Source: a virus (Duplodnaviria > Caudoviricetes). From it: a stretch of DNA of 26,746 nt. Location of the stretch: positions 1-26,746 of IMG/VR virus record IMGVR_UViG_3300030098_003834; one strand, 5' to 3'. Shown piece by piece: positions 3,557 to 24,829 of this stretch (positions are counted from its first letter, which is position 1; each line of letters starts with the position of its first letter). The notes under the pieces were generated by a model. The model saw only the letters and a program-made list of their open reading frames with translations, was not told the origin of the DNA and searched no databases. Position numbers and translations under genes: made by a program.

Positions 3557-5164
3557 ATGACAGAACAGGCAGATAAATACCGTCAAGCGGCTCAACAAAT
3601 GAACCGTTTAGCCGATTTAGATGAAGAAGAAGAAGAAGTCAAAGATAGCATAGAAACAGAACTAGATACTGAATTGAAGAGTATCTTTAATAATTCTTAT
3701 GTTATGTCTGAGCATGAAGAAATTGTTAAATTATCTAATGCTTTTAATATTAATGCCAGTGATGCAAGAAAGAGGCTTTCTGTTTTTCCCAATGAATATA
3801 TTGTTCAGGAACATTCAATTCCTGATTTAGTTAGAAAGATGCGAAAGTCTCGTAGAGCATTAAAGGGAGAACATCGAACAAGAATGTCTAAAGCAATTGA
3901 TACAATGATTGATGCTTATACAGACCATTTAAACAAGTGCATTGATTCTATTACATGGCTATCTGATTATCAAGTTCCTTTGCGTAAGATGAGATATAAT
4001 GAAAAAGATTTATCTAAACTTCATAAGATGAAGAGTTCTGAATTAAGAAGAGAAACGATTGATGCTCTTTGTAAATACTGGGAAGCAGAATTAGAACAGA
4101 ATGGAATGGCTTATGGAAAAGAATACTCCGTATTGCATAAGACAATGAGTTTAGCAAAGAAAGAATTTAGAAATGCTATTGGTAAAATAACAGACCAGTC
4201 TTTAACAAAATCAAAGAGACAAAGAACAGAAGATTTCATTCTTAAAGCAGTTTGTGAAAATCCAGGAATTAATGCTGCTGGAATACACGAAAGAATGCCT
4301 TCTACTTTACATAAAGCATCAAGCCCTAATTCTATTTCAAAAGCCATTAAGAAGTTAGAAATCACTTCTATCAAGGGTAATTATTACAAAGTTCCTTCTA
4401 TGATTAAGAAAAACATTTGGGCTTATACTGCTGCATTTATTGACTCAGATGGTTATATTACTCTTGACCGCAATATGAATCCAAGAGTAGGATTAGTAGC
4501 AACAGGAACAAGGGGTCGTGCATTCATGGAAGAAATGCATAAGTCTCTTGGTTTTGGTCGTATGCACTTAGACCAAAAATCTCCACAGGCCACTCGATTA
4601 ATTAACAGGTTAAACTTTTATTCTCAAGATGACGTAACAAAATTATTGACAAAGTGTTTGCCTCATTTTAGATTAAAGAAAGGAAACGCTAAATTACTTC
4701 TTGAATTGATTCGTATGAAGAAATCTTACAAGAAAGCAGATTGGTATAAAGGCCGTTGTGATGAGATTTTTAAGTTAATGAAATGGGAAAACCATAAAGA
4801 CCATGTGGGGTTTGATTGGCTAAAAGAAGGCATTTATTTAGATGATATACAAAAATACAAAGATAATTGTAAGATGTCAGTTATGGATGAAATGGAAAAC
4901 ATTGGAACTATTATTAAGGGTTCTTCTAATCCATATTTAAGAGATAGAAAAAATTTAGGTGATAGAGAAGTAGATTTCATTATTTCTACTACTGAAAAAC
5001 TTTTAAGAAAGAAACCTGAAAATCTTGATGAAACAGGTAATAAAATATTTAAGGAATTAGAAAAAGCACATTTAATGTATAGGTCTGGTCAAAATTATAG
5101 TTATGCCATTGGAAGAATGCATAAATATATTAAAGAACACATTAAAAAATATGGAAAAATATAG
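3557..5164 (+). CDS. LAGLIDADG endonuclease-domain protein with N-terminal helical region and probable winged helix
   Basis: WAYTAAFIDSDGYITL is a LAGLIDADG helix, followed by the typical FMEEMHKSLGFGRM and LLTKCLPHFRLKKGNA segments. FILKAVCENPGINAAGIHERM...SISKAIKKL is wHTH-like. Confidence 0.8.
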   Translation: MTEQADKYRQAAQQMNRLADLDEEEEEVKDSIETELDTELKSIFNNSYVMSEHEEIVKLSNAFNINASDARKRLSVFPNEYIVQEHSIPDLVRKMRKSRRALKGEHRTRMSKAIDTMIDAYTDHLNKCIDSITWLSDYQVPLRKMRYNEKDLSKLHKMKSSELRRETIDALCKYWEAELEQNGMAYGKEYSVLHKTMSLAKKEFRNAIGKITDQSLTKSKRQRTEDFILKAVCENPGINAAGIHERMPSTLHKASSPNSISKAIKKLEITSIKGNYYKVPSMIKKNIWAYTAAFIDSDGYITLDRNMNPRVGLVATGTRGRAFMEEMHKSLGFGRMHLDQKSPQATRLINRLNFYSQDDVTKLLTKCLPHFRLKKGNAKLLLELIRMKKSYKKADWYKGRCDEIFKLMKWENHKDHVGFDWLKEGIYLDDIQKYKDNCKMSVMDEMENIGTIIKGSSNPYLRDRKNLGDREVDFIISTTEKLLRKKPENLDETGNKIFKELEKAHLMYRSGQNYSYAIGRMHKYIKEHIKKYGKI

Positions 5165-5176
5165 GAAGTGAAAAAA

Positions 5177-5386
5177 ATGGAATGGCAGGATATTTTAAAG
5201 AAAAAGAAAAAGAAGAAATCTACTGTAAATCAGTCTGGAAACTATACAAAACCTGGAATGAGAAAAAGAATTTTTAATAGAATTAAACGAGGAACAAAAG
5301 GTGGTGCGGCAGGTCAATGGTCTGCAAGAAAAGCGCAGATGTTGGCTCAGGCGTATAAGAGGGCTGGTGGCGGATATAAAAATTAA
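5177..5386 (+). CDS. Small basic protein with N-terminal WQDILK tag; resembles the N-terminal half of DUF5872-like proteins
   Basis: ATG at 5177 follows GGAAGTGA. GNYTKPGMRKRIF...GGAAGQWSARKAQMLAQAYKRAGGGY is a motif I recall from small marine-phage and DUF5872-type proteins. Confidence 0.7.
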   Translation: MEWQDILKKKKKKKSTVNQSGNYTKPGMRKRIFNRIKRGTKGGAAGQWSARKAQMLAQAYKRAGGGYKN

Positions 5387-5651
5387 TTGGCGTAATATTC
5401 TTAAAGCCAAATCAAAAAGGCAACAAGACTTATCTACTTGGACTGATGAAGATTGGGGAAGTGCTGAACAACACCGAGCAAAAGCAAAAGGAAAAAAAGC
5501 ACCATCTAAGACTAAAGGAAGATATATGCCGAAATCAACTTATCAAAGAACAGATAAAAAAACCTTAAGGTATCAAGACGCAAAGAAGAGAAAAGGTCGC
5601 AAAAAAGGTATTCAGCATGTTCCAACAGGAAAGAAGTTTAGTCAAAAGTGA
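5367..5651 (+). CDS. Small basic protein with WRNILK tag; resembles the C-terminal half of DUF5872-like proteins; start uncertain
   Basis: KSKRQQDLSTWTDEDWG...GRYMPK...KKRKGRKKGIQHVP. The track start at 5301 overlaps the previous gene deeply; in-frame GTG at 5367 (or non-canonical ATA 5376/ATT 5382) is more plausible. Confidence 0.65.
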   Translation: MADIKINWRNILKAKSKRQQDLSTWTDEDWGSAEQHRAKAKGKKAPSKTKGRYMPKSTYQRTDKKTLRYQDAKKRKGRKKGIQHVPTGKKFSQK

Positions 5652-5653
5652 TT

Positions 5654-5995
5654 ATGATGTGGCAAAAAATCTTAAAGGCTGACCCAAAGAAAGGAACAGG
5701 TAAGAAACCAAAAGGTTCAACAAGAAGATTATATACAGATGAAAACCCAAAAGATACTGTTCCTGTAAAGTTTAAAACAGCAAAAGATGTAAGAGGAACA
5801 TTTGCAAGCGGTTCGTTTAAATCAAAACCACATAAGAGACAATCACAAATAATTAACTTAGTTGAACAAAGAGCAAGAGTGGCGGCTAAAAGAGCAAAAG
5901 ACCCTGAAACAAAAAAGAGATTAAATGCAGCACATAAGGTAGCCTTAGCAAGAAAAGAATCAAGCAAAAGAAAAACGGAGAGGATGAAGAAATGA
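5654..5995 (+). CDS. Small basic protein with WQKILK tag
   Basis: ATG ATG TGG at 5654-5662. ADPKKGTGKKPKGSTRRLYTDENPKDTV resembles a conserved uncharacterised marine-virus family (recalled, unverified). Confidence 0.7.
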   Translation: MMWQKILKADPKKGTGKKPKGSTRRLYTDENPKDTVPVKFKTAKDVRGTFASGSFKSKPHKRQSQIINLVEQRARVAAKRAKDPETKKRLNAAHKVALARKESSKRKTERMKK

Positions 5996-6135: not shown

Positions 6136-6825
6136 GTGCCAATAACCAAAAAGAAGGACGGCTTTTATTGGGGTTCAAAAGGCCCATTTAAAACAAGAAA
6201 GAAAGCGGTTCAAGTTGCACAGGCGGCTTATGCTAGTGGTTATGTTAAAAAAAGTTGGTTTGATATTCTTAAAAAAAGAACTTGGCAAGGAAAGTTATCA
6301 AAGGATAAAAGTAAAATTTTACAAAGGAGTCCTAAAATAAAGTTAGATATTCCAAAAATGAGTTATCCAAAAGAGGAAACAGAAATACCTGCTATATTAA
6401 AGGTTATGAAAAAAAAGAAACTTACACCAAAACAAATGAAAGATTCTGACTTAAAACCAGAAATAGAAATGTTTAAAATAGTTGATGCAAATAAAAAAGA
6501 TTATGAAGATTTTATGAAGGACATAAACTATTATGCCATCTCTTTAAAAATGAAATATCAAAGACCACGACCTCACGAAATTTCAGATAAAATTCAAACA
6601 ACAAAAACAAAAACAGATGATACTCCTGCATTTCCAAGTGGACACTCAATGTTGGCTCATGGATTAGAAAAAGTATTAGGAAAGAAATACCCAAACAAAA
6701 GGAAAGAACTTAAAGAAATGGCAGATAGGATTTCTTTATCAAGAATGCAAATGGGAAGTCATTATCCAAGTGATATTCAAGCAGGAAAAAAATTAGGCTA
6801 TATGATAGGTGATAAGTATGACTAA
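6136..6825 (+). CDS. PAP2/haloperoxidase-superfamily phosphatase fused behind a short basic N-terminal module and an internal WFDILK motif
   Basis: All three PAP2 motifs are present: KMKYQRPRP (Kx6RP), FPSGHS (PSGH) and SRMQMGSHYPSDI (SRx5Hx3D). No transmembrane helices evident. Confidence 0.85.
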   Translation: MPITKKKDGFYWGSKGPFKTRKKAVQVAQAAYASGYVKKSWFDILKKRTWQGKLSKDKSKILQRSPKIKLDIPKMSYPKEETEIPAILKVMKKKKLTPKQMKDSDLKPEIEMFKIVDANKKDYEDFMKDINYYAISLKMKYQRPRPHEISDKIQTTKTKTDDTPAFPSGHSMLAHGLEKVLGKKYPNKRKELKEMADRISLSRMQMGSHYPSDIQAGKKLGYMIGDKYD

Positions 6826-7321
6826 CTGGCAAAATATATTAAAAAAACCATTTAAGGAAGACCCTGATGAAATGACTGATTTTATGAATATCAGTCCTAG
6901 AATGAAAATGGCAAAATTAGAGCGTCAAATTCTTAGAGAGATAGAGAAGGAAGGCGGAGCATTGGGAATGAAAAACCTAAAGCAATTCGGCAAAGAATCA
7001 AAAATCAAACAAGCCCTATCTAAGTTAAGAAAGGAAGGTAAAATCTTTATGCACGAAGATGGAGATATTTATACTCATAAACCAGAAGATATTGAAAAAT
7101 TTGGACTTCAATTTCAAGATGATAATGTAAAATTTGCATATAATCAAGCCTTTAAACAGTATGGAAAAAGACTTAAGAATGAAATGAAACGGGTTTATAA
7201 ATTTAATAATAGACCAATAACTCAACAAGACCTTGACCAAGCAAAAAGAGCAATTGGTTCACAAGGAGTTTCCTCTCTTCCTTCTATGAGGCAAACTGGA
7301 ACAAATATGCAAAGAGGGTGA
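6818..7321 (+). CDS. Hypothetical protein with WQNILK tag and probable winged-helix domain
   Basis: ATG 6818 after AGGTGA. LERQILREIEKEGGALGMKNLKQF...IKQALSKLRKEGKIFMHEDGDIY fits a wHTH pattern. Confidence 0.65.
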   Translation: MTNWQNILKKPFKEDPDEMTDFMNISPRMKMAKLERQILREIEKEGGALGMKNLKQFGKESKIKQALSKLRKEGKIFMHEDGDIYTHKPEDIEKFGLQFQDDNVKFAYNQAFKQYGKRLKNEMKRVYKFNNRPITQQDLDQAKRAIGSQGVSSLPSMRQTGTNMQRG

Positions 7322-7325
7322 TATA

Positions 7326-7610
7326 ATGGAAGAATGGCAAGAAATTCTTAAGAAGAAACCTTTCAAGGGTTATAACAAAAAGATTCACGCAAGAACAGGT
7401 GGATTAAGTGCTAAAGGTCGTGCCAAGTTTAAGCGTGAACAAGGTTCTAATTTAAAGCCACCAGTTACTACTAAACCAAGTAAATTAAAAAGAGGCAGCA
7501 AAGCAGCAAAAAGGCGTAAATCTTTCTGTGCGAGGTCAAGAGGATTTAAACGAGCCGACGGAACTTATAGTGAAAAAGCAAGAGCCGCCCGAAGAAGGTG
7601 GAACTGTTGA
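7326..7610 (+). CDS. Small basic protein with WQEILK tag; DUF6321-like
   Basis: GGLSAKGRAKF...GSNLKPPV...AAKRRKSFCAR...RRWNC matches a conserved phage family recalled from memory. GGGTGA RBS upstream. Confidence 0.7.
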   Translation: MEEWQEILKKKPFKGYNKKIHARTGGLSAKGRAKFKREQGSNLKPPVTTKPSKLKRGSKAAKRRKSFCARSRGFKRADGTYSEKARAARRRWNC

Positions 7611-12425: not shown

Positions 12426-12962
12426 ATGCCTGAGAGAGTTACAAGAGAAGAAAGAAAAATTAGTCTTATGATTGAAAAAGCGAGAGATGCAAAGGAAATA
12501 CTTTATCAATCGCTGATGGATAATAATAGAAATCCTATGGATGATGAATCAGAAGCGTTTAAATTAAAGCGACCAAAGGCTGAAAATTATAACTACAAGG
12601 CCGAATCAAACGATGGCCCCGATACTTTTCATGCTTATGCAGGAGAAATCACAAAGATGGTAAAGTTATTAAAGAACATTTTACCTGAAGATTATGAAAC
12701 AAATCCTTTCTTAGATGATGAGAAAAGAGTTAAGTTAATTAGTCAAATTGATGGTCTTTCCACCATGCTTTCTGGTATGGCTAAGCAGATTAAAGAGGCA
12801 AAGATTAGCGAACAACCTGCAATTATGGATAAGATGGTTGAAATTAATCAAAAGTTAGCGGCTCTTGAAAAAGAATTATCCGAAGTTCCCGAACAAACTA
12901 AGTTTTATGATTCAGAATATTCGGGAGAAACATTAGACCCTGAATACGAAAGAAATAGATGA
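12426..12962 (+). CDS. Hypothetical helical protein
   Basis: 178-aa ORF with GGAGTGA RBS overlapping the upstream stop. Confidence 0.7.
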   Translation: MPERVTREERKISLMIEKARDAKEILYQSLMDNNRNPMDDESEAFKLKRPKAENYNYKAESNDGPDTFHAYAGEITKMVKLLKNILPEDYETNPFLDDEKRVKLISQIDGLSTMLSGMAKQIKEAKISEQPAIMDKMVEINQKLAALEKELSEVPEQTKFYDSEYSGETLDPEYERNR

Positions 12963-15505
12963 TTCGTATGAAATTGGCTTCTATTGAGAAGGATAAGCAA
13001 CCTTCCCAAGAAATTCTTCGTCTATTTGAAAAGACAAGAGTAGCCTATTTATCTGCTATTCACGACCCAACAGAATATTCGGGTCGTTGGCGTAAAGCCG
13101 TAGATATGATTACTGAATCATATGAAGAATCAGATGCCGCAGGAAAAGAAATGCGAAACTTTATTGATGAGAAGGATTTAGAAGATAAGGACACAAAAGA
13201 CCCTACTTCAAGACAAGCGAAAGAACTGTATGAAAAAATAAAATTGCTTCGCTATTCGTCGCCTATTGTCGCTGACCCATTCGCATCTATGTTCAAGGAT
13301 AATGTCCTTGAAGAATTATTGGATAATCCAGAAAGCATGGTTAAATTTGTGCATTATGCTTTAAGGGATGACAATAAAGCCCTATCTGATGACATTTACA
13401 GCGTTAAAGGGATGCAACCCGACACGATTACGGAGGGTCTTAAGGGTCTTGACTTAGAATCGGATGATATTGCCCTCTATATTATTGAGCATTACGGGGA
13501 TGGAAAAGACTCAAAGAAGGTCGAATCCAAAGTAAAGGCTGCTATGGATATGTTAGAACTAATTTTCTTTTCTAAGAATGAAAAGAAGGATTGGGAAGAA
13601 TTGAAAGATATTGAGGGAGTAGAGAAGTCTGTTCCTAATGATGAGAAAAAATCTATCTCTCAATTTATTGTTCCTAATAAACCAATGTATAGAATTTTTG
13701 AAGTTAAGGACATTGAGGAATTAAAAGGCTTTAGTGGCAATTGGTATGTTCAAGAAAAGTATGATGGCATGAGAGTACAATTACATAAAATAGATAATAA
13801 GGTTACTATTTATTCTTATAACGGTAAAGACATTTCTAGTAAATGTAAAGAACAGGTTGATGAATTAAAAAAGAAAGAATACGGTGATTGTATTTTCGAT
13901 GGAGAATTAGTTCTCTTTGACGGAGATGAACCTCTCCATAGAGCAGATACTATCGCTCATGTATTCAAAGATAAATATAAAGAGGCTAAATTAAAGTGCC
14001 ATGTTTTTGATATTATTAGGCATGAAGCACAAACATTAGCAGATGAAGAATTAGAAAATAGAATGACAATTTTATTCAACAACTATTCTTCTAAATCAGG
14101 AGAAGCAATTGCTTATCCATCAAAGAAAGATACTCGCCAAGCAGATAACTTAAAGGATATTGAAAAATATGCTGAAGAAATGATGGAAATTCCTACATCT
14201 GAAGGAGTAGTTATCAAAGACTCTACTTCAACATATTATATTGGAACAAAGAAAAATCCTAAATGGATTAAGTTAAAGAAGTTTGTTGATTTAGATGTTA
14301 TTGTTTTAGATAAGAAAAAGACAAAAAGTAATCTTTATTCTTATACTGTTGGAGTTGGGCCAGTTGATGAAGAAATGACTGGTGCTGTTGAAATAAATAA
14401 GAGGCATTATTTGAATGTAGGCAAAGCATTGAATACAAAAATCGCAGTTGATATTGGGGAAATTATCCGAGTAAAGGTTGATGAAGTCAAAAAGAAAGGA
14501 GAAGGGTTTAGTTTATTCTCAGCGAAACCTATTGAGATACCTGAAGTAGAACACCCTGATAAATTAGTCACATTAGAATTACTTTCTCAAGACACCAAGA
14601 AGTCTTTAAATTATGATGTTGAGGCATTTACAAAAGGTGTTAAAATAACAGACCATATTCATGGAGAAGCCAATGTAATTATCAAATATGATTTAGATGG
14701 CTTTACTATTTATGGATATGAAAAAGATAATTTAATGTCTAAGAATGCCACAATGGACTTAGATATGTGGAAGCAACAAGCGATTGATATTATGAAGTCC
14801 AAGCAAAGTGATTTGACTGTGGCTTCCTTCCAATACTTAAAAATGAGTGGAGATAAAACTCCTAAAGAACTACATAACTTTTTGGTGAAAGAACATAAAG
14901 ATTTATACGAAGATGTTCTTGAATCTGATGTAAAGAAGTTAAAGAAGTGGATAATTCTTAGAGATGGCATTAGTGAAAAAGAAGGAAAAATTTCTGCTGA
15001 TGATGATAAAATTATGCAGGAAGAAGAAATCATGAAAGAAGATATTAAAGCGGTTGAAGGAGAATATAAAACACCTCCCGAATTAAGAGAAGGTGAATTT
15101 AAATTATACGCTAGAGAAGATGATAATTTAACTTTAGCAATTAAACTAAAGACAGAAAATATGTTCTGGACAATTGATATTGAGAATGAAGAAGAATTGT
15201 TTGATTTATTCGGGGCTGCTGGTAAATATCCAGCAGAAGTAGCAAAGACTGTAACTAAAGGAAAGGTCGTTGATTCTGGTAAAATAAAATTAGGTATTCA
15301 AAGAGATGGCTACCATGAATATTTCTTAGAAGGCAACAAGTTTGAAACTAAAATGCATTATAGAGTCTTAGATGTAGATGGACAAAAAATGTGGCTTGCA
15401 TGGACTGGATATAAACAAACTCCTGCTGATAAGGAAGGGGATGAAGGAAAGTGGAATATTTATGAAGATAGGTATAACAAATTACCCCTTCCTACTGAAG
15501 AATAG
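12959..15505 (+). CDS. lig: ATP-dependent DNA ligase-like protein with long N- and C-terminal extensions
   Basis: Nucleotidyltransferase motifs: I QEKYDGMRVQLHK (adenylated Lys at about 13757), III IFDGELV, IIIa CHVFDII, IV SEGVVIKD, V WIKLKK, followed by an OB-fold-like region. Start could be 12968. Confidence 0.88.
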   Translation: MIRMKLASIEKDKQPSQEILRLFEKTRVAYLSAIHDPTEYSGRWRKAVDMITESYEESDAAGKEMRNFIDEKDLEDKDTKDPTSRQAKELYEKIKLLRYSSPIVADPFASMFKDNVLEELLDNPESMVKFVHYALRDDNKALSDDIYSVKGMQPDTITEGLKGLDLESDDIALYIIEHYGDGKDSKKVESKVKAAMDMLELIFFSKNEKKDWEELKDIEGVEKSVPNDEKKSISQFIVPNKPMYRIFEVKDIEELKGFSGNWYVQEKYDGMRVQLHKIDNKVTIYSYNGKDISSKCKEQVDELKKKEYGDCIFDGELVLFDGDEPLHRADTIAHVFKDKYKEAKLKCHVFDIIRHEAQTLADEELENRMTILFNNYSSKSGEAIAYPSKKDTRQADNLKDIEKYAEEMMEIPTSEGVVIKDSTSTYYIGTKKNPKWIKLKKFVDLDVIVLDKKKTKSNLYSYTVGVGPVDEEMTGAVEINKRHYLNVGKALNTKIAVDIGEIIRVKVDEVKKKGEGFSLFSAKPIEIPEVEHPDKLVTLELLSQDTKKSLNYDVEAFTKGVKITDHIHGEANVIIKYDLDGFTIYGYEKDNLMSKNATMDLDMWKQQAIDIMKSKQSDLTVASFQYLKMSGDKTPKELHNFLVKEHKDLYEDVLESDVKKLKKWIILRDGISEKEGKISADDDKIMQEEEIMKEDIKAVEGEYKTPPELREGEFKLYAREDDNLTLAIKLKTENMFWTIDIENEEELFDLFGAAGKYPAEVAKTVTKGKVVDSGKIKLGIQRDGYHEYFLEGNKFETKMHYRVLDVDGQKMWLAWTGYKQTPADKEGDEGKWNIYEDRYNKLPLPTEE

Positions 15506-16806: not shown

Positions 16807-18159
16807 ATGGTTGGATATATTAACACAATTGCAGATTTAGAAGCACAAACATACGGAACGGGCGCAACTGGGCATATTAGCAACCAGTTGCTTAAAGCGG
16901 CAGGAACCGTTAGTGGCATTCATGTCGCTCACGATGGCGCATTAAGCGACCCAACAGGTATTAACGCAAATCTTTACAACAAGATTTACGGCCAAAAGGT
17001 ATGGTCTATGTTAAACCGAGAATGCAACGCATTGTCTGTTATCGCAAAGCGACCATATTCTTCAAGTGGCTGGAGAATTTTGAAGAAAAGACCCGCAGGT
17101 GGAGCAGGAAACTTCTTGGACATTTCTGCCGCTTCCAACACAACTCTCAATACTGCGCTTTATGGTGCTGATTCTTTGAGAGCAGACCGAATCGGTGGTG
17201 TTCCTGAAAATGCTTCATTAGATTCTGATTCAGACGGTCTTCAATCAATTGCTCCCGAATACGATGTTCTCTTTACGAGTCCAAAGATTATTGCTCATCA
17301 ATTCTCTTTCAGCGAATTGGCTATGGAAATGGCTCAAATTGACGATGGTATCGGTGATATTAGAGCGCAATTGAGAGAAGATATGGGCAAGCACCACGCA
17401 GAAGTTCAAAACACCATGCTTGTTATGCCATTGGAGAACTATTCTCCAACTACGGCCTATAACACGGCAAACGCAATTGATAGAGGATATACTTCTCTTT
17501 TCAAGATTGTAAGCAACTCGGCTGAAATAACTGAGTTGGCTGACAATTCTGGTGGAAACCTTGTTGATTCTGCTAGTGACCAACAAATTGACACTCTTTA
17601 CGGAAAACTCCGAAGTGCGTCTGGAAACGAGTATTTAGATGCAGAAGTTTCTTTTGGTGATGGCTACCTTTCAGCAGAAGCACGACAATTGACCTTAACG
17701 GTTATTAACGATATGCTCCGAAGACTCCGTGTTGCAGGTGGTTCTCCAAAGGTTATCCTTACTGGATATGATACCCTTCAAACGCTTTCTGACTTATTAC
17801 AAGCCCAAGAGCGATTCATGGATAGAAAGGAAATTGTTCCTACTGTTAATGGTGTTCGTGGTGTTAAAGGTCAAGAAGTCGGATTCCGTGTTTCTACCTA
17901 CTACGACATTCCTTTGATTCCTGTTGCTGCTATGCCTTCAACTGGAAACAATTCAAGTTTGATTAGCGATATGCTTTTCCTTGATACTGACCATTTGTGG
18001 CTATCTGTTATGAAGCCTACACAATACTTTGAAGATGGTATCAGCAACGGAAACCCATTCGGTGTTGGTAATCTTGGAAACAAGGCTCTTTATCGCACAA
18101 TGGGTGAAACTGGTTGTTCTTACTTCAAGGGTCAAGGAAAGATTACCAATCTCCTTTGA
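16807..18159 (+). CDS. mcp: Major capsid protein (HK97 fold expected)
   Basis: 450 aa, directly after the protease/scaffold, with strong RBS. Typical late-MCP segments PKVILTGYDT and GFRVSTYYDIPLIP...DMLFLDTDHL. Confidence 0.88.
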   Translation: MVGYINTIADLEAQTYGTGATGHISNQLLKAAGTVSGIHVAHDGALSDPTGINANLYNKIYGQKVWSMLNRECNALSVIAKRPYSSSGWRILKKRPAGGAGNFLDISAASNTTLNTALYGADSLRADRIGGVPENASLDSDSDGLQSIAPEYDVLFTSPKIIAHQFSFSELAMEMAQIDDGIGDIRAQLREDMGKHHAEVQNTMLVMPLENYSPTTAYNTANAIDRGYTSLFKIVSNSAEITELADNSGGNLVDSASDQQIDTLYGKLRSASGNEYLDAEVSFGDGYLSAEARQLTLTVINDMLRRLRVAGGSPKVILTGYDTLQTLSDLLQAQERFMDRKEIVPTVNGVRGVKGQEVGFRVSTYYDIPLIPVAAMPSTGNNSSLISDMLFLDTDHLWLSVMKPTQYFEDGISNGNPFGVGNLGNKALYRTMGETGCSYFKGQGKITNLL

Positions 18160-19254: not shown

Positions 19255-19638
19255 ATGGCAGCATTAAGTCAAGATACTCGTCTAATTATGACAATTCTAT
19301 TTGTCGGTGCATTAAGCGGAACAAATGTTTGGGCATATGCAGCATTTGGAATGAATTTCCCATATGGCCCATTAGCCCATTCTGTTCTATTTGGTTTAGG
19401 AACAATTGGTGCAATTATGGTTATGAAAGCAATCTTTGATTTATCACTCAATGATAGAATAGAACTTTGGCTCTTAGACCGTAAAATTGCGGCATACTGG
19501 GAAAGAAAGGCTAGGGATGAACAACAAAAACAAAAGATGCGTGAAAGTGCAAAACAATATAATACTACCTTTTATCAACCTGTTCAGCAAGAAGAAGAGA
19601 ATAGCGTTGGTAATGAGTTCTTAGCCGCACTTCAATAG
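19255..19638 (+). CDS. Membrane protein, two predicted TM helices plus charged coiled-coil C-terminus
   Basis: Hydrophobic stretches LIMTILFVGALSGTNVWAYAAFG and LAHSVLFGLGTIGAIMVMKAIF; GAGGTGA RBS. Confidence 0.75.
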   Translation: MAALSQDTRLIMTILFVGALSGTNVWAYAAFGMNFPYGPLAHSVLFGLGTIGAIMVMKAIFDLSLNDRIELWLLDRKIAAYWERKARDEQQKQKMRESAKQYNTTFYQPVQQEEENSVGNEFLAALQ

Positions 19639-19649
19639 GCGGTGAAAGA

Positions 19650-19868
19650 ATGGTCTTTGGCGACATAATGGGCTTTTCTGATTCAGACTACGCTTACAAT
19701 CAGCAAAGAGCGCATTCTGCTGACATCTTTTTTTTGAAGATGCGAATGCTTTTTTGGGGTTCATGTGCCTGTCTTTCAGGTTTTCTTGTTGGAAACATTT
19801 TAGGTGTTTTTGATATTAATGTCATGGGTTGGCTTTTTGATACTCTCCTTAACGGGTGGGGGCATTAA
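19650..19868 (+). CDS. Small membrane protein
   Basis: Hydrophobic MLFWGSCACLSGFLVGNILGVFDINVMGWLF; GCGGTGA RBS. Confidence 0.7.
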   Translation: MVFGDIMGFSDSDYAYNQQRAHSADIFFLKMRMLFWGSCACLSGFLVGNILGVFDINVMGWLFDTLLNGWGH

Positions 19869-20536
19869 TGTCATTAATGACAGGATTTGCTATTCTTGTC
19901 GGTGAAGCAATTATAGGATTCTACAAAAAGGTTCACGCCATTAATTTTGGAGTTTATGGGGCAACAATGGTTGGTAAAACAACATTAAGTCATCAGTTAA
20001 GAACGAGAGGAGAAGTGCCACAAATTAACGAAAGAACTGTTGGGCGACATAGAGCAACGAGAAAAAATGTTAAAATAGACGGTAATTCTCATACAGTAAG
20101 AAGTGCAGATATTGGTGGAGAAGCAATTTACTGGAAAGAATGGGAAAAAGACATGCAAAACCGAAGAGTAAAATACGTTGTTTTTATGATTGACCACCGA
20201 CATTTAGATAATGAAATTAACTTAGACCACCAATTAGCATGGAAATTTTTAGTCGATTCAATAATTTCAAACAGATGGTCGAATGGAAAAAAGAAAAGAG
20301 AATCTGATTATCCAATCGCAATAGGTATTTGGGCAAATAAATATGACATTTGGGGGAAAAAATACCCGTTAGCAGAAGGCCAAGAAATAGATAAACATGA
20401 GATTTTTGAACCATTTAAATACGGTATGAGAAAGTTAAACGATAAAGGAATACCATGTTTCAAATATATTGTATCTGCAAAGTCTGACCCCGAAATGGTT
20501 TATAGAGGAATTACTACAATGATAAAGGACTACTGA
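19868..20536 (+). CDS. Ras-superfamily (Arf/Sar-like) small GTPase
   Basis: G1 GATMVGKT, G2 RTVG, G3 DIGG(E), beta-4 VVFMID, G4 WANKYD, G5 VSAK. Hydrophobic N-terminal helix. ATG 19868 overlaps the upstream TAA. Confidence 0.88.
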   Translation: MSLMTGFAILVGEAIIGFYKKVHAINFGVYGATMVGKTTLSHQLRTRGEVPQINERTVGRHRATRKNVKIDGNSHTVRSADIGGEAIYWKEWEKDMQNRRVKYVVFMIDHRHLDNEINLDHQLAWKFLVDSIISNRWSNGKKKRESDYPIAIGIWANKYDIWGKKYPLAEGQEIDKHEIFEPFKYGMRKLNDKGIPCFKYIVSAKSDPEMVYRGITTMIKDY

Positions 20537-20541
20537 TTATT

Positions 20542-21222
20542 ATGTATCAAAATAATATTATAGGACAAACTGCACCACAACAATTTAATCCTTCTCTTTC
20601 GCCACTTAAACAGGCAAGAGCAAGCGGTGTTGTGCAAGAATACAAGTTTATTTCATACAAACCTAAGGCTCAATTAAAAGAACTTAAATTGGTTCTAAAA
20701 GCAGAACCAAAGAAGTTTTTAGGTATTAAGTATGGAAAAAAGTTTAATCTTAAAGATAGGTGTGTTGTCTGCGGTTTTCATCATGTTTGGGAACAAGGAG
20801 ATTATATGCGTCCACCTATGCCTTTAGATGGTGTAGTCAAAGGACGACCACTAATGGGAACTTATTGTCCTAAGCATGCTTCTATTTACGTTCAATTAGA
20901 AATGCTACAACAACAGATACTTGCTGATAAGCACGGTTTAGAATTTAGTGCCTTCAAACCACGAATGCCTAAAATTCTTAAAGGTGGGCCAATTAAGACT
21001 TTAAGCAAAGAAGATGTTATGAGCCTTACATCAGCAGGATGGTTTATAACCCCACCCGCATTAGGAGATTCAAAGACGGCAACGGATGAAGTCATTCGTT
21101 TGATTACAGAAATAAATATTATGACGGAAAGACTCAATCATTTAATGCTTAAGCACAATGTTCAAGCACAAAATGAATTACCGCAAGAAGAAGCAAAGGA
21201 AGAAGTAGTTAAGGAGGCATAA
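20542..21222 (+). CDS. Hypothetical protein with probable Zn-binding site and C-terminal coiled coil
   Basis: CVVCGFHH...YCPKH metal-ligand pattern; helical C-terminus. Confidence 0.7.
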   Translation: MYQNNIIGQTAPQQFNPSLSPLKQARASGVVQEYKFISYKPKAQLKELKLVLKAEPKKFLGIKYGKKFNLKDRCVVCGFHHVWEQGDYMRPPMPLDGVVKGRPLMGTYCPKHASIYVQLEMLQQQILADKHGLEFSAFKPRMPKILKGGPIKTLSKEDVMSLTSAGWFITPPALGDSKTATDEVIRLITEINIMTERLNHLMLKHNVQAQNELPQEEAKEEVVKEA

Positions 21223-21224
21223 AT

Positions 21225-21884
21225 ATGGTATTTGGAACAAGCAATAAAACAGTTTTAGGAGCAGTTCAGCAACAATCAGACGCACAATTTAAGACAGTAA
21301 ATAACTTATTATCTTTACAGGAAAATCACGTTGAAGAGTTCTTTCAATATCATGGAGAACAATTCTTGGTTGCTCTTGAAAAGTTAATGGAAGATGTTGT
21401 TGAACGAGTAGTTTCTCAAATGCTAGGTAAATTAGCATTTAGTCAAAATGGAAACATCATTTCTGTAAATCCTGATGCTATGAGAGAATATGAAAGAATT
21501 ACTCAAGAAAATATTGATTTAGATATTCAAAAGTTATTGCAATCGGCTATCAATAGTGAAGTTATTATGCAAAGAAAGATGGCCAAACAACAATATCTCG
21601 AATCTCAAGGTTTTGGTGGTGGTAATGGAATACAACAAATTACGCAGCCAACCGCAGCATCAGCAATTGCAGGAATTACTGGCAATCAGCAACAATATGC
21701 TCAAATGCAGGGTGCTATGAATAATGGTTCAGGCTATCCTGTTCCTCCATCGGGAACAGATGGATATGGCCGTCCTTACTGGATTGATGCTCAAGGACAA
21801 ATGAGTTATGAACCACCTACAAGTGGTTTGGGATTAGGTTCAGCAATTCAAAAAGGTGCTGCTTGGGCAAAATGGCTCATGTGA
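21225..21884 (+). CDS. Hypothetical protein: helical N-half, Q/G-rich low-complexity region, amphipathic C-terminus
   Basis: AGGAGG RBS; ends GLGLGSAIQKGAAWAKWLM. Confidence 0.7.
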   Translation: MVFGTSNKTVLGAVQQQSDAQFKTVNNLLSLQENHVEEFFQYHGEQFLVALEKLMEDVVERVVSQMLGKLAFSQNGNIISVNPDAMREYERITQENIDLDIQKLLQSAINSEVIMQRKMAKQQYLESQGFGGGNGIQQITQPTAASAIAGITGNQQQYAQMQGAMNNGSGYPVPPSGTDGYGRPYWIDAQGQMSYEPPTSGLGLGSAIQKGAAWAKWLM

Positions 21885-21894
21885 GGTGAAATAA

Positions 21895-23526
21895 GTGGTT
21901 AATTTCAATTGGGGTAAGCAGACTCTTAGTTTGCCCCGTTCAGCGTCTTTTATTGAAACGCAGATGAAAAACTACATTCTTGACGGTAATAAAGAATTTC
22001 GTCGTAGAGTGAGAAAAGCAAAAGAAAGCGTTGAAGATAGTGAGCCAAATAGTGCTGCATTAAAGAGTGAATTAACCAAAATCTTAGAAAAAGTTCTTGA
22101 TGAACCTTTAAAGCCAATCTTAGAAAGAGATACTGATTCATGGAAAATATTTTCTCGTAAGAGAGATAAAAGTCCTAATGAAGCAAATCTTTCTTTTATT
22201 GAAGATAAAAAAGTTGGAGATATTACTAGTGGAAAAGTTATTGGCAGATTAAGAGGAACGGATGTTTCTTTTATTCGTGGTGGTAAAACCAAACTACCTG
22301 ACTTTGATTTTGATGATTTTTTTTCAGCATATGGAAAAGAACCCCAAATTGCCTTTGAACTTCTTTTTAGAGAACACGCAAGATATAATGATAGATTTAA
22401 TTATTCTCACCAACCTGCCCGAAGTGGCCTTAAAGGACACATTGAGGCTAAGTTTCCTGCATTTGATTACGGTGATTTAGAAAAAGTAAAGGCTGATTTT
22501 ATCTTAGAAACAACAGGTCAAGAAGCAGGTTATAGACCGAGCAATACAAAAATAAATATTGCAAAGGAAGTAATTGATTACTCTTTTAATATTCCTGAAT
22601 CTGTTTTACAAAAATTAGATATAGAATCTGCACAAGATAACTATGTTACTGAAGCCATAATAAATGAAGATGGTGAATTTGAATCCGTTGGTGAAAAGAT
22701 TCCGATTTCAGATGATACTGACGATGAAATAAACAACTATGTTGTTCAAGCCGCAACAGACAGTTTAGATAGAACCGATGAAATGAGAGATGAAGATATT
22801 ATTCAAATCGGAGATAAATATTATACATATCAATTTACTCCTCAAGGTGAATCAGACAAACAAGCCTATCTTAAATTTGAAGGAGATGGAGCAGGAACAA
22901 TTGAAGGCTTCTTTAAAGATGAAGCAGTTAAAAATATTATTATGAGAATACTTAGACCATTTTTAGTTATTCCTGATGAAGTTTATTCTTTTAAGGTCAT
23001 TGGAAATATTAGAACCAAAAAGAAAACTGCGCCAACATATAGAGAGTTTGCTACTGAAGCAGCAGAAGATTTACGAGTAATGGATGTAGAAACAGGAAAA
23101 GAAGGAAAACCATTAACTCAATCTATGATTGATGAGCAATCTAAAAGAGCATTTAGTCATAAGACAGAAAAAGATGAGGATGGAAACCCAGTTTTTATTT
23201 CTGAAAAAGAATATGCTAAATTACCAAAAGAAGAAAAAGAAAACTATAAGTCTGAAATTAGGTATTATGAGATTAGTGAAGGTGGAGTTAAAAGCACAAA
23301 AGATTCTGCTGAATTTGGTGAAGAAGAGGTAATGGCCGAAACTGTTCGTGCAGAAGACCTTAAAGATGCTTTTAGAGAAGCATACGTCGAATTAACATTT
23401 GAAGCGACTAAGCATGGTGAATATAACCTAAGCGGTTCTCGTTCAAGACAAAACAGAAGTATGGTTACTTACACAAATAAACTCAAAAAGAATGTAAGAA
23501 AATTAAAGAGAATGATTGGTGTCTAA
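21895..23526 (+). CDS. Large acidic hypothetical protein
   Basis: GTG start with GAGGTGA RBS; 543-aa open frame with basic termini and acidic core. Confidence 0.7.
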   Translation: MVNFNWGKQTLSLPRSASFIETQMKNYILDGNKEFRRRVRKAKESVEDSEPNSAALKSELTKILEKVLDEPLKPILERDTDSWKIFSRKRDKSPNEANLSFIEDKKVGDITSGKVIGRLRGTDVSFIRGGKTKLPDFDFDDFFSAYGKEPQIAFELLFREHARYNDRFNYSHQPARSGLKGHIEAKFPAFDYGDLEKVKADFILETTGQEAGYRPSNTKINIAKEVIDYSFNIPESVLQKLDIESAQDNYVTEAIINEDGEFESVGEKIPISDDTDDEINNYVVQAATDSLDRTDEMRDEDIIQIGDKYYTYQFTPQGESDKQAYLKFEGDGAGTIEGFFKDEAVKNIIMRILRPFLVIPDEVYSFKVIGNIRTKKKTAPTYREFATEAAEDLRVMDVETGKEGKPLTQSMIDEQSKRAFSHKTEKDEDGNPVFISEKEYAKLPKEEKENYKSEIRYYEISEGGVKSTKDSAEFGEEEVMAETVRAEDLKDAFREAYVELTFEATKHGEYNLSGSRSRQNRSMVTYTNKLKKNVRKLKRMIGV

Positions 23527-23527
23527 A

Positions 23528-24829
23528 ATGGGTCAAACAATCTCGCCAAGCGATTTTACAGAAATTAATCCTGATTATTCTCAAGGTCGGGGATTCTATA
23601 CAAATGCTACCGAAGTTGCCAACTTACTTCAAGTTCCTGCCTTTTCAGTCTCAACATTCCCCACATTGGCCCAAGTTGGTTCAATTATCAAAAGGGTGGA
23701 AGGAATCGTTGATGACAAGGTAAAGCGGTCATACCGACCAATTATCACAAAGGATGAACACCATAACTTTGAATTTTCTCACCTGCCACACAAGGCATAT
23801 TACGGTGGTCATGTTGGTTTTGTTCAATTAGCAAAAATGAAAGTAAGAAAGATTGTTTCTTTACTTTTGTGGCAAGGTAGCCAGTATATTGAAATTGCGT
23901 CGGCTCAAGCCAAAATTACTTTGCTTGAGAATTTTAGAGACTTACATTCCATTATTTTACAATTACCAAACAACGGTGTATCTTTTGAGATGATTGCTGA
24001 AAACAATTTAAGTGATTTAGCAAACGATGAGTTCAATAATACCTTTGGTATCAAAACAACCAACGAAGAAATCATCTCTTTGGTGAACGAATCTTTTCCT
24101 TCAATGTCTCAATTTACTGGTGCAACTGCACCGAAAAGCCTCACTCAATCTAATTTATCCATTTCTGACTTTTTCTATGCCGCCAAGAACAAGAATAATG
24201 GCAAGCAAATTCTCTTCTCATCCCTACTTTCGGGGGATGATGGGGCAGATTGCGTCATCAAGGCTACCATAAAACAGTCATGTACGACTGTAAATGCATC
24301 AACGGCTCTTACTGTTTCTGATTCATCTAAATTAGCCGTAGGTATGACTGTTAGTGGAACAGGTATTACAGGAACAATTACTATCGCTTCAATTACTGAT
24401 GCAACAAATGTGGTGTTAAGTGGAACAGCATCGGGAAGCGGAACAAATACTTTAACATTTACAACTACGGAACAAATTCCAACTGTTTGCACATTAATAG
24501 ATTTTACAGACAAAGAAGACTTAAGAAGACTTGGAGACTATTGGACTATCAATGAAGAGGGCCGTATTTTCTTTTTGAAAGATTATCCTTATCATAGAAA
24601 TAATTCAGTTATTGTTTCATATATTGCTGGTGATAATAGAGTTCCTTCTGCTATTCACGAAGCAACAACAAAATTAGCAGCATCTGAAATTATACGACAT
24701 GATGACCAAAGTATTCTAATTACAGAATCGGGTGGCAATATTTCTACTAAAGAAAAGTATGATATACTTCGTAAAGAAGCGATGGATATTTTGAAAGGCA
24801 AAGGCGATTTAGTTTATTTCTTAGATTAA
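23528..24829 (+). CDS. Putative head-tail adaptor/connector with inserted domains
   Basis: N-terminal YTNATEVANLL...IIKRVEGIVD and C-terminal VIVSYIAGDNRVPSAIHEATTKLAASEI match SPP1 gp15/HK97 gp6-like adaptor patterns. ATG 23528 preferred over 23516. Confidence 0.65.
   Translation: MGQTISPSDFTEINPDYSQGRGFYTNATEVANLLQVPAFSVSTFPTLAQVGSIIKRVEGIVDDKVKRSYRPIITKDEHHNFEFSHLPHKAYYGGHVGFVQLAKMKVRKIVSLLLWQGSQYIEIASAQAKITLLENFRDLHSIILQLPNNGVSFEMIAENNLSDLANDEFNNTFGIKTTNEEIISLVNESFPSMSQFTGATAPKSLTQSNLSISDFFYAAKNKNNGKQILFSSLLSGDDGADCVIKATIKQSCTTVNASTALTVSDSSKLAVGMTVSGTGITGTITIASITDATNVVLSGTASGSGTNTLTFTTTEQIPTVCTLIDFTDKEDLRRLGDYWTINEEGRIFFLKDYPYHRNNSVIVSYIAGDNRVPSAIHEATTKLAASEIIRHDDQSILITESGGNISTKEKYDILRKEAMDILKGKGDLVYFLD

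Follow-up and report, generated by a model that had tools for sequence, protein, structure and literature searches.

A five-gene block around a viral small GTPase

We analysed a stretch of viral DNA of 26,746 nucleotides (IMG/VR record IMGVR_UViG_3300030098_003834, hereafter the window), a 26.7-kb virus record that is 29% complete, and found in it a block of five genes, here called A, B, G, Z and Q, that lies on the plus strand at positions 19255 to 21884 and keeps its order among its relatives. The central gene, G, encodes a divergent small GTPase that by its motifs and predicted fold is a member of the Ras superfamily, with an activity presumed from these features. The block is a viral module not described before, although its general kind, a small-GTPase membrane system, is known; the four partners of the GTPase are orphans. 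The observations on the block are its gene order, the conservation of its motifs, the predicted Ras-superfamily fold of G and its relocation as a unit, and together with the structure models they make it very probable that the five genes act together and, slightly less firmly, likely that they act on the host membrane late in infection. As the best single reading we tentatively favour, at a little under an even chance, a GTP-switched machine that, late in infection, would remodel or breach the membrane of the host, most likely so that progeny are released.

A first-pass annotation of the window had placed five plus-strand open reading frames (ORFs) here, and all were present. Gene A (19255..19638, + strand) encodes 127 amino acids (aa) with predicted transmembrane (TM) segments at about residues 10-28 and 43-61, a charged helical tail and a conserved C-terminal GNEFLAALQ, a layout that is holin-like, and gene B (19650..19868, +) encodes 72 aa with a conserved polar N-terminal motif (AYNxxRAHSAD), one predicted TM segment at about residues 38-56 and a Trp-containing C-terminal helix. 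The hydrophobic segments that had been described, two in A and one in B, were borne out by KD19 peaks of 1.49 (residue 10) and 1.89 (residue 43) in A and of 1.65 (residue 38) in B. Gene G (19868..20536, +) encodes a 222-aa, Arf/Sar1/SRbeta-like protein of the Ras superfamily with an N-terminal hydrophobic helix at residues 3-22. Its start is most likely the ATG at 19868, which overlaps the stop codon of B (TAATG), and not the GTG at 19856, since most homologues of G are 217-222 aa long and their alignment begins at the Met of that ATG. The remaining genes are Z (20542..21222, +; 226 aa), with a putative Zn site, a proline motif (RPPxPL, residues 90-95) and long helices at residues 110-131 and 180-205, and Q (21225..21884, +; 219 aa), with a helical N-terminal domain at about residues 20-130, a Gln/Gly-rich linker, a WW-like motif and a C-terminal Trp/Lys helix.

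Conservation of the block

Of 155 GTPase-anchored loci examined, 110 had enough flanking sequence, and the order A-B-G-Z-Q was kept in every one of these (110/110). With the capsid gene as an independent anchor, 78 new loci were obtained, 21 of them spanning capsid to neck; all five genes were present in 21/21 of these contigs and in 22/22 capsid-anchored loci with at least 5.5 kb downstream. By median identity to the window over the 21 contigs, G matches the capsid protein in conservation (63% vs 60%), followed by Q (56%), A (50%), Z (48%) and B (43%). Unrelated insertions were observed among close relatives in the B–G interval (11/78) and the G–Z interval (20/76), and none in the A–B (0/78) or Z–Q (0/72) intervals. 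The first-pass annotation had also described the block as tightly coupled, and as a distinctive trait this did not hold: the intergenic gaps within it (11, -1, 5 and 2 nt) are no tighter than those among the neighbouring genes before it (11, 10, 10, 61 and 9 nt) and after it (10, -11, 1 and -25 nt).

The window reads as a magrovirus fragment, since a homologue of its GTPase at 78% identity is a hypothetical protein (P0077) of Poseidoniales virus YSH_150918, the exemplar of Aoguangviridae (PMC10768690), and the closest annotated records for its capsid protein are the haloviruses HCTV-1 and HVTV-1. From this kinship to magroviruses we infer that the host is a Marine Group II (Poseidoniales) archaeon. 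Window ORFs include terminase, portal, DNA ligase, prohead protease and major capsid genes (Pfam, PHROGs). The major capsid gene (16807..18159, +; phrog_24667, E 9e-20) lies upstream of the block and a neck-like gene (23516..24829, +; phrog_17057), so labelled from its position, lies downstream. The latter is homologous to HCTV-1 gene 117 (phmmer E 1.5e-7 to L159:11712-12386), and in HCTV-1 gene 117 comes after the capsid gene without the five-gene block between them. None of the five profiles had a match near the capsid genes of HCTV-1 (19 kb covered) and vir335 (15.6 kb covered); over the remainder of both genomes a tblastn with G alone likewise gave no match.

Searching 1.84 billion representatives with a profile yielded 79 matches, including full-length proteins 25-35% identical to G, and the loci of these distant GTPases form four more clades beyond the window's own. 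The second clade contains tailed viruses of 100-118 kb (80 loci), and the order was kept in 74/74 loci with enough flank, a count that shows consistency inside that clade as its profiles were built from the same loci. HHalign comparison of own and second-clade families gave 100% for G, 96% for Z and 85% for Q, while for A (1.8%) and B (0.5%) homology was not detected; against the pooled distant clades the values were 98% for Z, 96% for Q, 55% for A and 28% for B, with off-diagonal values of at most 16%. In the complete genome G001, the GTPase (59388-60098), terminase (50496-51794) and capsid (36845-37963) genes lie on a single strand, and the block is found ahead of the packaging genes, some 21 kb before the capsid gene. 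The third clade, also tailed, is represented by 13 loci, with G, Z and Q in 13/13, A in 12/13 and a terminase downstream in 5. The placement between head and neck genes reported for the window is thus correct here (capsid gene at 16807, neck-like gene at 23516) and does not extend to the distant relatives, the block lying upstream of the terminase gene in two tailed clades. At both tailed positions it is co-oriented with virion genes.

The fourth clade (4 loci) includes G003 (L323-L328), a 110-kb genome that is 79% complete by CheckV and in which the block follows a thermosome gene. G003 encodes PolB, a primase, an Rpb1-like RNA polymerase subunit and an AAA ATPase, and also a stand-alone 238-aa FtsK/HerA-type ATPase, several small hydrophobic proteins and a protein rich in Arg and Lys whose C-terminus is hydrophobic. 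No terminase or portal was found in G003 or in the fragments G004 (L355-L357) and G005 by searches positive on G001 and G002, nor was a magrovirus capsid found in G003 by a profile positive on the same two genomes; a single candidate capsid protein of G003 had no match against the PDB. The thermosome of G003 pointed to no host, its relatives being mostly without a name. We infer that this clade is possibly an undescribed large tailless virus group. The fifth clade comprises 11 metagenome loci, with the same order in the two mapped gene by gene, and two of its loci share a protein with the G003 ATPase region (39-42 bits). P0252 had no pattern match among viral contigs and was found in metagenomes. 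As grounds for discarding the module the first-pass annotation had named a failure of the genes to co-occur; on the contrary, they co-occur in fixed order within the window's clade and across the four distant clades, and the attempted refutation failed.

These placements bear on whether the five proteins are virion parts, such as chaperones for head-tail joining or a membrane channel that is ejected. Some ejection proteins are Gln/Gly-rich and helical, as is Q, which also has a weak match to phrog_14074 'virion structural protein' (E 0.0046), and in the window's own clade the block does lie between capsid and neck genes. It sits away from head and neck genes in two tailed clades, however; HCTV-1 has homologous capsid and neck genes without it, and G003 carries it with no head genes detected. 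A W-x-x-ILK motif found on seven other window ORFs is also missing from the block (0/76 for each of the five proteins), which would count against virion parts if the motif marks packaged cargo. We consider this explanation unlikely, the least probable of those weighed here, and the presence of the block in an element in which no terminase, portal or magrovirus capsid was detected argues for a portable module that would act on the host rather than for ordinary virion parts.

If the module acts on the host, its target could still lie outside release, and the block might serve a takeover of the host at its membrane, by preventing superinfection, stopping cell division or secretion, or countering a membrane-based defence. 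The GTPase would then be a signalling switch. Its occurrence in viruses of apparently different architecture would suggest a common host target, and exclusion functions are typically carried out by small membrane proteins. A core step of the life cycle is nonetheless a better fit to capsid-level conservation and to the presence of all five genes in 21/21 capsid-anchored contigs, and the block is co-oriented with late genes; host takeover of this kind therefore appears quite unlikely.

In a tree of 44 GTPase rows the five clades and three unplaced proteins fell on one branch with 99/98 support, under a midpoint root and with viral proteins and unnamed relatives only, no named references being included. 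The nearest outside relatives of the viral GTPases were small GTPases with hydrophobic N-termini (P0279, P0307, P0310, P0290, P0305, P0303, P0313, P0317-P0319). One GTPase match per genome was observed in 3/3 genomes. No tblastn match in annotated phage records was found for G, for the distant-clade G or for the G003 ATPase. In GTDB genomes, 1 of 67 pattern-matched stretches encoded a relative, the patterns reaching close relatives only. This one apparently cellular copy, on a 12,200-base contig (L082, NZMJ01000024.1) of a Maricaulis metagenome-assembled genome, agreed with viral contig L042 in length, range and identity and was set aside as probably a misbinned virus. Two metatranscriptome contig sets contained only short pieces over the capsid gene, B, G/Z and Q that were mostly less than 95% alike and are uninformative for this genome.

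Two further observations concern the layout of the distant blocks. A sixth small two-TM gene directly follows Q in three distant clades (L242:10314-10568, L244:10214-10453, L344:12232-12549), including 74/74 loci of the 100-118-kb clade, and none follows Q in the window. In the fifth clade B and G are separated by an extra gene, which has a long tail of Asp and Glu (L344:9241-9996, L353:9229-9996).

The GTPase

The G motifs are G1 (GATMVGKTT), T57, G3 (DIGGE), G4 (NKYD) and G5 (SAK). The residues G31/G36/K37/T38, T57, D81/G84, N157/K158/D160 and S203/A204/K205 were invariant in 50/50 aligned members, and G1 and G4 are retained across all five clades. The predicted model (pLDDT 77.9, pTM 0.78) matched Ras-superfamily folds in Foldseek with probability 1.00, and Rab33 and G-alpha chains ranked alongside Arl3, Arl8b and Arf1. 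By VIA-align the highest Z-scores were a tie between Arf6 (16.3), LokiRagO (16.3), SRbeta (16.0) and Sar1 (15.5), with a root-mean-square deviation of 2.5-2.9 A over 155-170 residues for the top matches, and Rab and Ras chains scored at most 15.1. Pfam matches among 50 members were all sub-threshold (MMR_HSR1 in 47, Roc in 42, Ras in 38, SRPRB in 31 and Arf in 3), while TIGR00231 small_GTP matched 12 of the 23 members of a wide G alignment. A sequence search of the PDB with G gave Ras and Rab matches only, at E values of at least 0.065.

The fold thus has Arf6, Arl3/8/13B, Sar1, SRbeta and the Asgard ArfR among its best matches, and several traits are shared with this family. An N-terminal helix precedes the G domain. 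The Arf switch-2 signature reads wDvGGqxxxRxxW; in G all five clades keep the DxGG and, 11 residues further along, a Trp. The first Trp of the signature, before G3, is absent in all G, and the position of its Arg is Trp in 76/76 own-clade proteins and Arg in 12/13 of one distant clade. At the switch-II Gln position, Glu was observed in 66 of the 76 own-clade proteins and Gln in 10, with His or Asp elsewhere. A switch-2 signature for the interswitch toggle of Arf proteins is given in the part of PMC6724607 available to us. G also lacks the myristoylation Gly2, as do two ArfR tested (bioRxiv 10.1101/2024.02.28.582541, in the part available; PDB 8ouk). Unlike the Arf family, G shows only 11-19% identity, has about 40 residues of insertions, lacks the Trp before G3 and mostly replaces the Gln by Glu; LokiRagO ties for the best fold, Pfam Arf (3/50) falls below MMR_HSR1, Roc, Ras and SRPRB, and the gene is virus-encoded with partners of its own. 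We do not file G in the Arf family, although by motifs and model it plausibly works like Arf or Sar1.

The predicted helix at residues 3-22 had a KD19 value of 1.62, a mean hydrophobicity of 0.61 and a best hydrophobic moment of 0.48, which was not above shuffles (p=0.13); across clades the median moment of this helix was 0.50-0.70.

The partner proteins

The putative Zn site claimed for Z was borne out as a conserved pattern within the window's own clade, in which C74, C77, C109 and H112 (C74-x2-C77 ... C109-x2-H112) were invariant in 65/65 aligned members. In two distant clades the second Cys is Asp or Thr, and in the fifth clade the Cys/His pair is lost; since the ligands are replaced in this way, the site appears not to be a universal core of the protein. 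ArfGAP proteins have a C4 zinc finger (CxxC-x16-CxxC) with an Arg finger, a pattern that was not found in Z, where the arrangement is C3H with a 31-residue spacer and Pfam ArfGap had no match among 65 members. The model of Z (pLDDT 70.8, pTM 0.52) reached a best VIA Z-score of 4.0 in the PDB, which gave no fold match, while BFVD returned its own family only and Atlas matches were below 0.9; a weak or missing fold match of this kind is not proof of a new fold. A nitroreductase match (E 0.0034 over 49 residues) was rejected as chance. With the ArfGAP pattern and a fold match absent and the Zn ligands lost in one clade, the GEF/GAP role that had been suggested for Z found no support.

The helical domain of Q is conserved and common to all clades. 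Its best match in PDB profiles was an I-BAR protein, not significant at E 0.67, and the best Atlas match (0.79) was uninformative. A coat or filament role had also been proposed, and it was not supported: no ESCRT-III/PspA or longin/roadblock match was found for Q in PDB profiles or among the best 25 of 38 Pfam families. Q ends in SAIQKGAAWAKWLM. Of the amphipathic Trp/Lys helix described there, the Trp and Lys stood, being invariant in 44/44 members, while amphipathicity was not borne out, as the hydrophobic moment of 0.40 was not above shuffles (p=0.23).

Between these parts of Q lies the WW-like stretch (21726..21830, +; residues 168-202), which is truncated, degenerate and below significance. 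PF00397 (WW) matched 17/44 members at E<=1 (best 1.3e-4), and in PDB profiles 12/12 matches at E<=5 were NEDD4/Itch chains (best E 0.029). The central aromatic pair and terminal Pro are invariant, the first Trp and first strand are absent, and the second Trp is replaced by Tyr. Its PY[WY]xD core was observed in 72/76 own-clade and 0/78 distant Q proteins, and the RP[PTS]xP[LI] motif in 74/76 own-clade and 0/67 distinct distant Z proteins. Since WW domains bind proline motifs, we would guess that Z and Q touch through the proline motif and the WW-like stretch, a suggestion that rests on one evolutionary event.

Proposed function

In the machine that we favour, A and B would build up in the membrane and serve there as an anchor, A possibly forming pores as well. 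G would dock through its hydrophobic N-terminal helix in the style of Arf and Sar1, and its loading with GTP would recruit Z and Q, the latter gripping the membrane by its C-terminal helix. In the window's clade only, the WW-like stretch of Q could bind the proline motif of Z. The GTPase cycle would set the timing, as the holin clock does in phages. We rank release first among membrane jobs because every lytic virus needs a release function, none was detected in the window and conservation equals that of the capsid. The absence of a visible endolysin, as first annotated, is true of the 32 window ORFs scanned in Pfam and the 30 scanned in PHROGs, in a record that is 29% complete. Of the GTPase-timed membrane machine in that annotation, action on the membrane is supported by the GTPase, its hydrophobic N-terminal helix and the two membrane proteins, and the host is probably archaeal; the coat or filament and GEF/GAP parts found no support. 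A more elaborate version, in which the block is a machine that uses its GTPase to time the exit from archaeal cells lacking a peptidoglycan wall, built from an Arf-like switch, anchors, a regulator and a WW/polyproline-linked scaffold and common to tailed magroviruses and a tailless group, seems doubtful to us on present sequences and models.

Several points weigh against release. The evidence does not separate release from other membrane jobs. Lysis can also be achieved by other means, as tailed haloviruses lyse cells and the block is missing from the 19 kb that surround the capsid gene of the related HCTV-1. No holin family matched A (36 members), B (35 members) or the window ORFs in Pfam or PHROGs, and homology of A and B between clades is weak (55% and 28%). 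The N-terminal helix of G could act as a permanent anchor, in the manner of SRbeta, since its moment is not above shuffles, and the switch-II residue, mostly Glu and elsewhere His or Asp, leaves the hydrolysis mechanism uncertain. Distant clades have replaced some or all of the Zn ligands of Z, the WW-like motif of Q and the proline motif of Z are limited to one clade, and in G003, at 79% completeness, head genes could be missing.

The same evidence from GTPase, membrane proteins and synteny would also fit a block that bends membrane without lysis, as an internal compartment, an anchored assembly site or the packing of virions or DNA in vesicles, in the style of ArvA or of Arf and Sar1 and with Q as a scaffold. 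Membrane-containing viruses have an FtsK/HerA-type ATPase and small hydrophobic proteins, and G003 encodes a stand-alone ATPase of this type with such proteins, whereas to our knowledge tailed viruses as a rule assemble without membranes. The I-BAR match of Q, although not significant, points the same way as the ATPase, and Arf-type GTPases bud membranes (PMC10927574 and PMC6724607, in the parts available). In the archaeal operon ArvA-ArvB-ArvC (OapABC), as far as described in the available part of PMC10927574, ArvA drives vesicle formation in Haloferax, and the likeness to the block lies in a conserved gene set with an archaeal small GTPase, which has an N-terminal helix, and a Zn-binding gene downstream for which a GAP role is proposed; the two membrane proteins of the block are without counterpart in that part of the source, and ArvABC is a cellular set of three genes. 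ArvB (DUF2073) and ArvC (DUF2072) had no Pfam match in Z (65 members), A (36), B (35) or the window ORFs, nor among the best 25 of 38 families of Q (44 members), and over this Pfam scope no coat-like domain was found in the five genes. Membrane bending without lysis is an unlikely explanation in our judgement, and release remains the job that we prefer.

Compared with holin-endolysin cassettes, including the putative Adrikavirales holins (PMC11706807, in the part available), A and B are likewise small, with one or two TM segments, a charged tail in A and a position in the late region. They resemble holins in size, TM segments and charged tail (two peaks and the tail in A, one peak in B), which is a weak criterion, and neither had an informative Pfam family match. 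The block differs from such cassettes, as far as that part of the source describes them, in that no holin family matched, no endolysin is visible in the window, and it contains, unlike them, a GTPase together with two soluble partners. Ras-superfamily GTPases on virus or mobile regions are also represented by an Arf-like pair of Atabeyarchaeia (PMC11529989, in the part available) and a mimivirus Rab (PDB 5xc5); these group with, or look like, Arf and Rab proteins of the host type, neither is from a tailed archaeal virus, and no five-gene membrane block is described in the available part of PMC11529989. In the magrovirus and Poseidoniales-virus literature we found no description of the block or its GTPase: 'GTP' is not in the main text of PMC11706807, PMC5434244, PMC10160649 or PMC5332604, and the Aoguangviridae profile (PMC10768690) has no mention of a GTPase.

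Magroviruses infect some of the most abundant microbes of the ocean. The main players in lysis by tailed archaeal viruses are called 'completely uncharacterized' in the available part of PMC10791045, and release through the block, if true, would be the first named mechanism by which these viruses break the host membrane. At 2.6 kb and five genes, the block could be expressed in a model archaeon, which makes the exit of tailed archaeal viruses testable. A GTPase of Arf/Sar1/SRbeta type that belongs to a virus, outside Asgard archaea and eukaryotes, is also relevant to the question of how membrane remodelling by GTPases arose.

Neighbouring genes

Directly after Q lies a large acidic gene (21895-23526) that is hypervariable, with a median identity of 34%; it was found in 40/80 close loci and was without a full-length match in the 21 capsid-anchored loci. 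Within the head module, in the interval from portal to prohead protease, an 848-aa ATP-dependent DNA ligase with long extensions is encoded at 12959-15505, and at the equivalent position G001 has a 1960-aa gene. A 535-aa gene after the terminase (3557-5164) contains a homing-endonuclease-like region (phrog_5046, E 5e-5).

Many small genes with no relation to one another carry the W-x-x-IL-K motif at their N-terminus or close to it, including 7 of the 33 window ORFs (685-2112, 5168-5386, 5301-5651, 5648-5995, 6136-6825, 6809-7321 and 7326-7610). One of these (6136-6825) encodes a PAP2-family phosphatase (PF01569, E 4e-12), possibly a lipid or nucleotide phosphatase carried as cargo. A signal of the capsid-targeting or prohead-protease type is known from T4, and the motif may be of this kind. 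It is also found on nearly all genes inserted in the block (L007, L014, L018, L021-L025, L030 and others), and similar AWxLLK motifs were observed in a distant clade.

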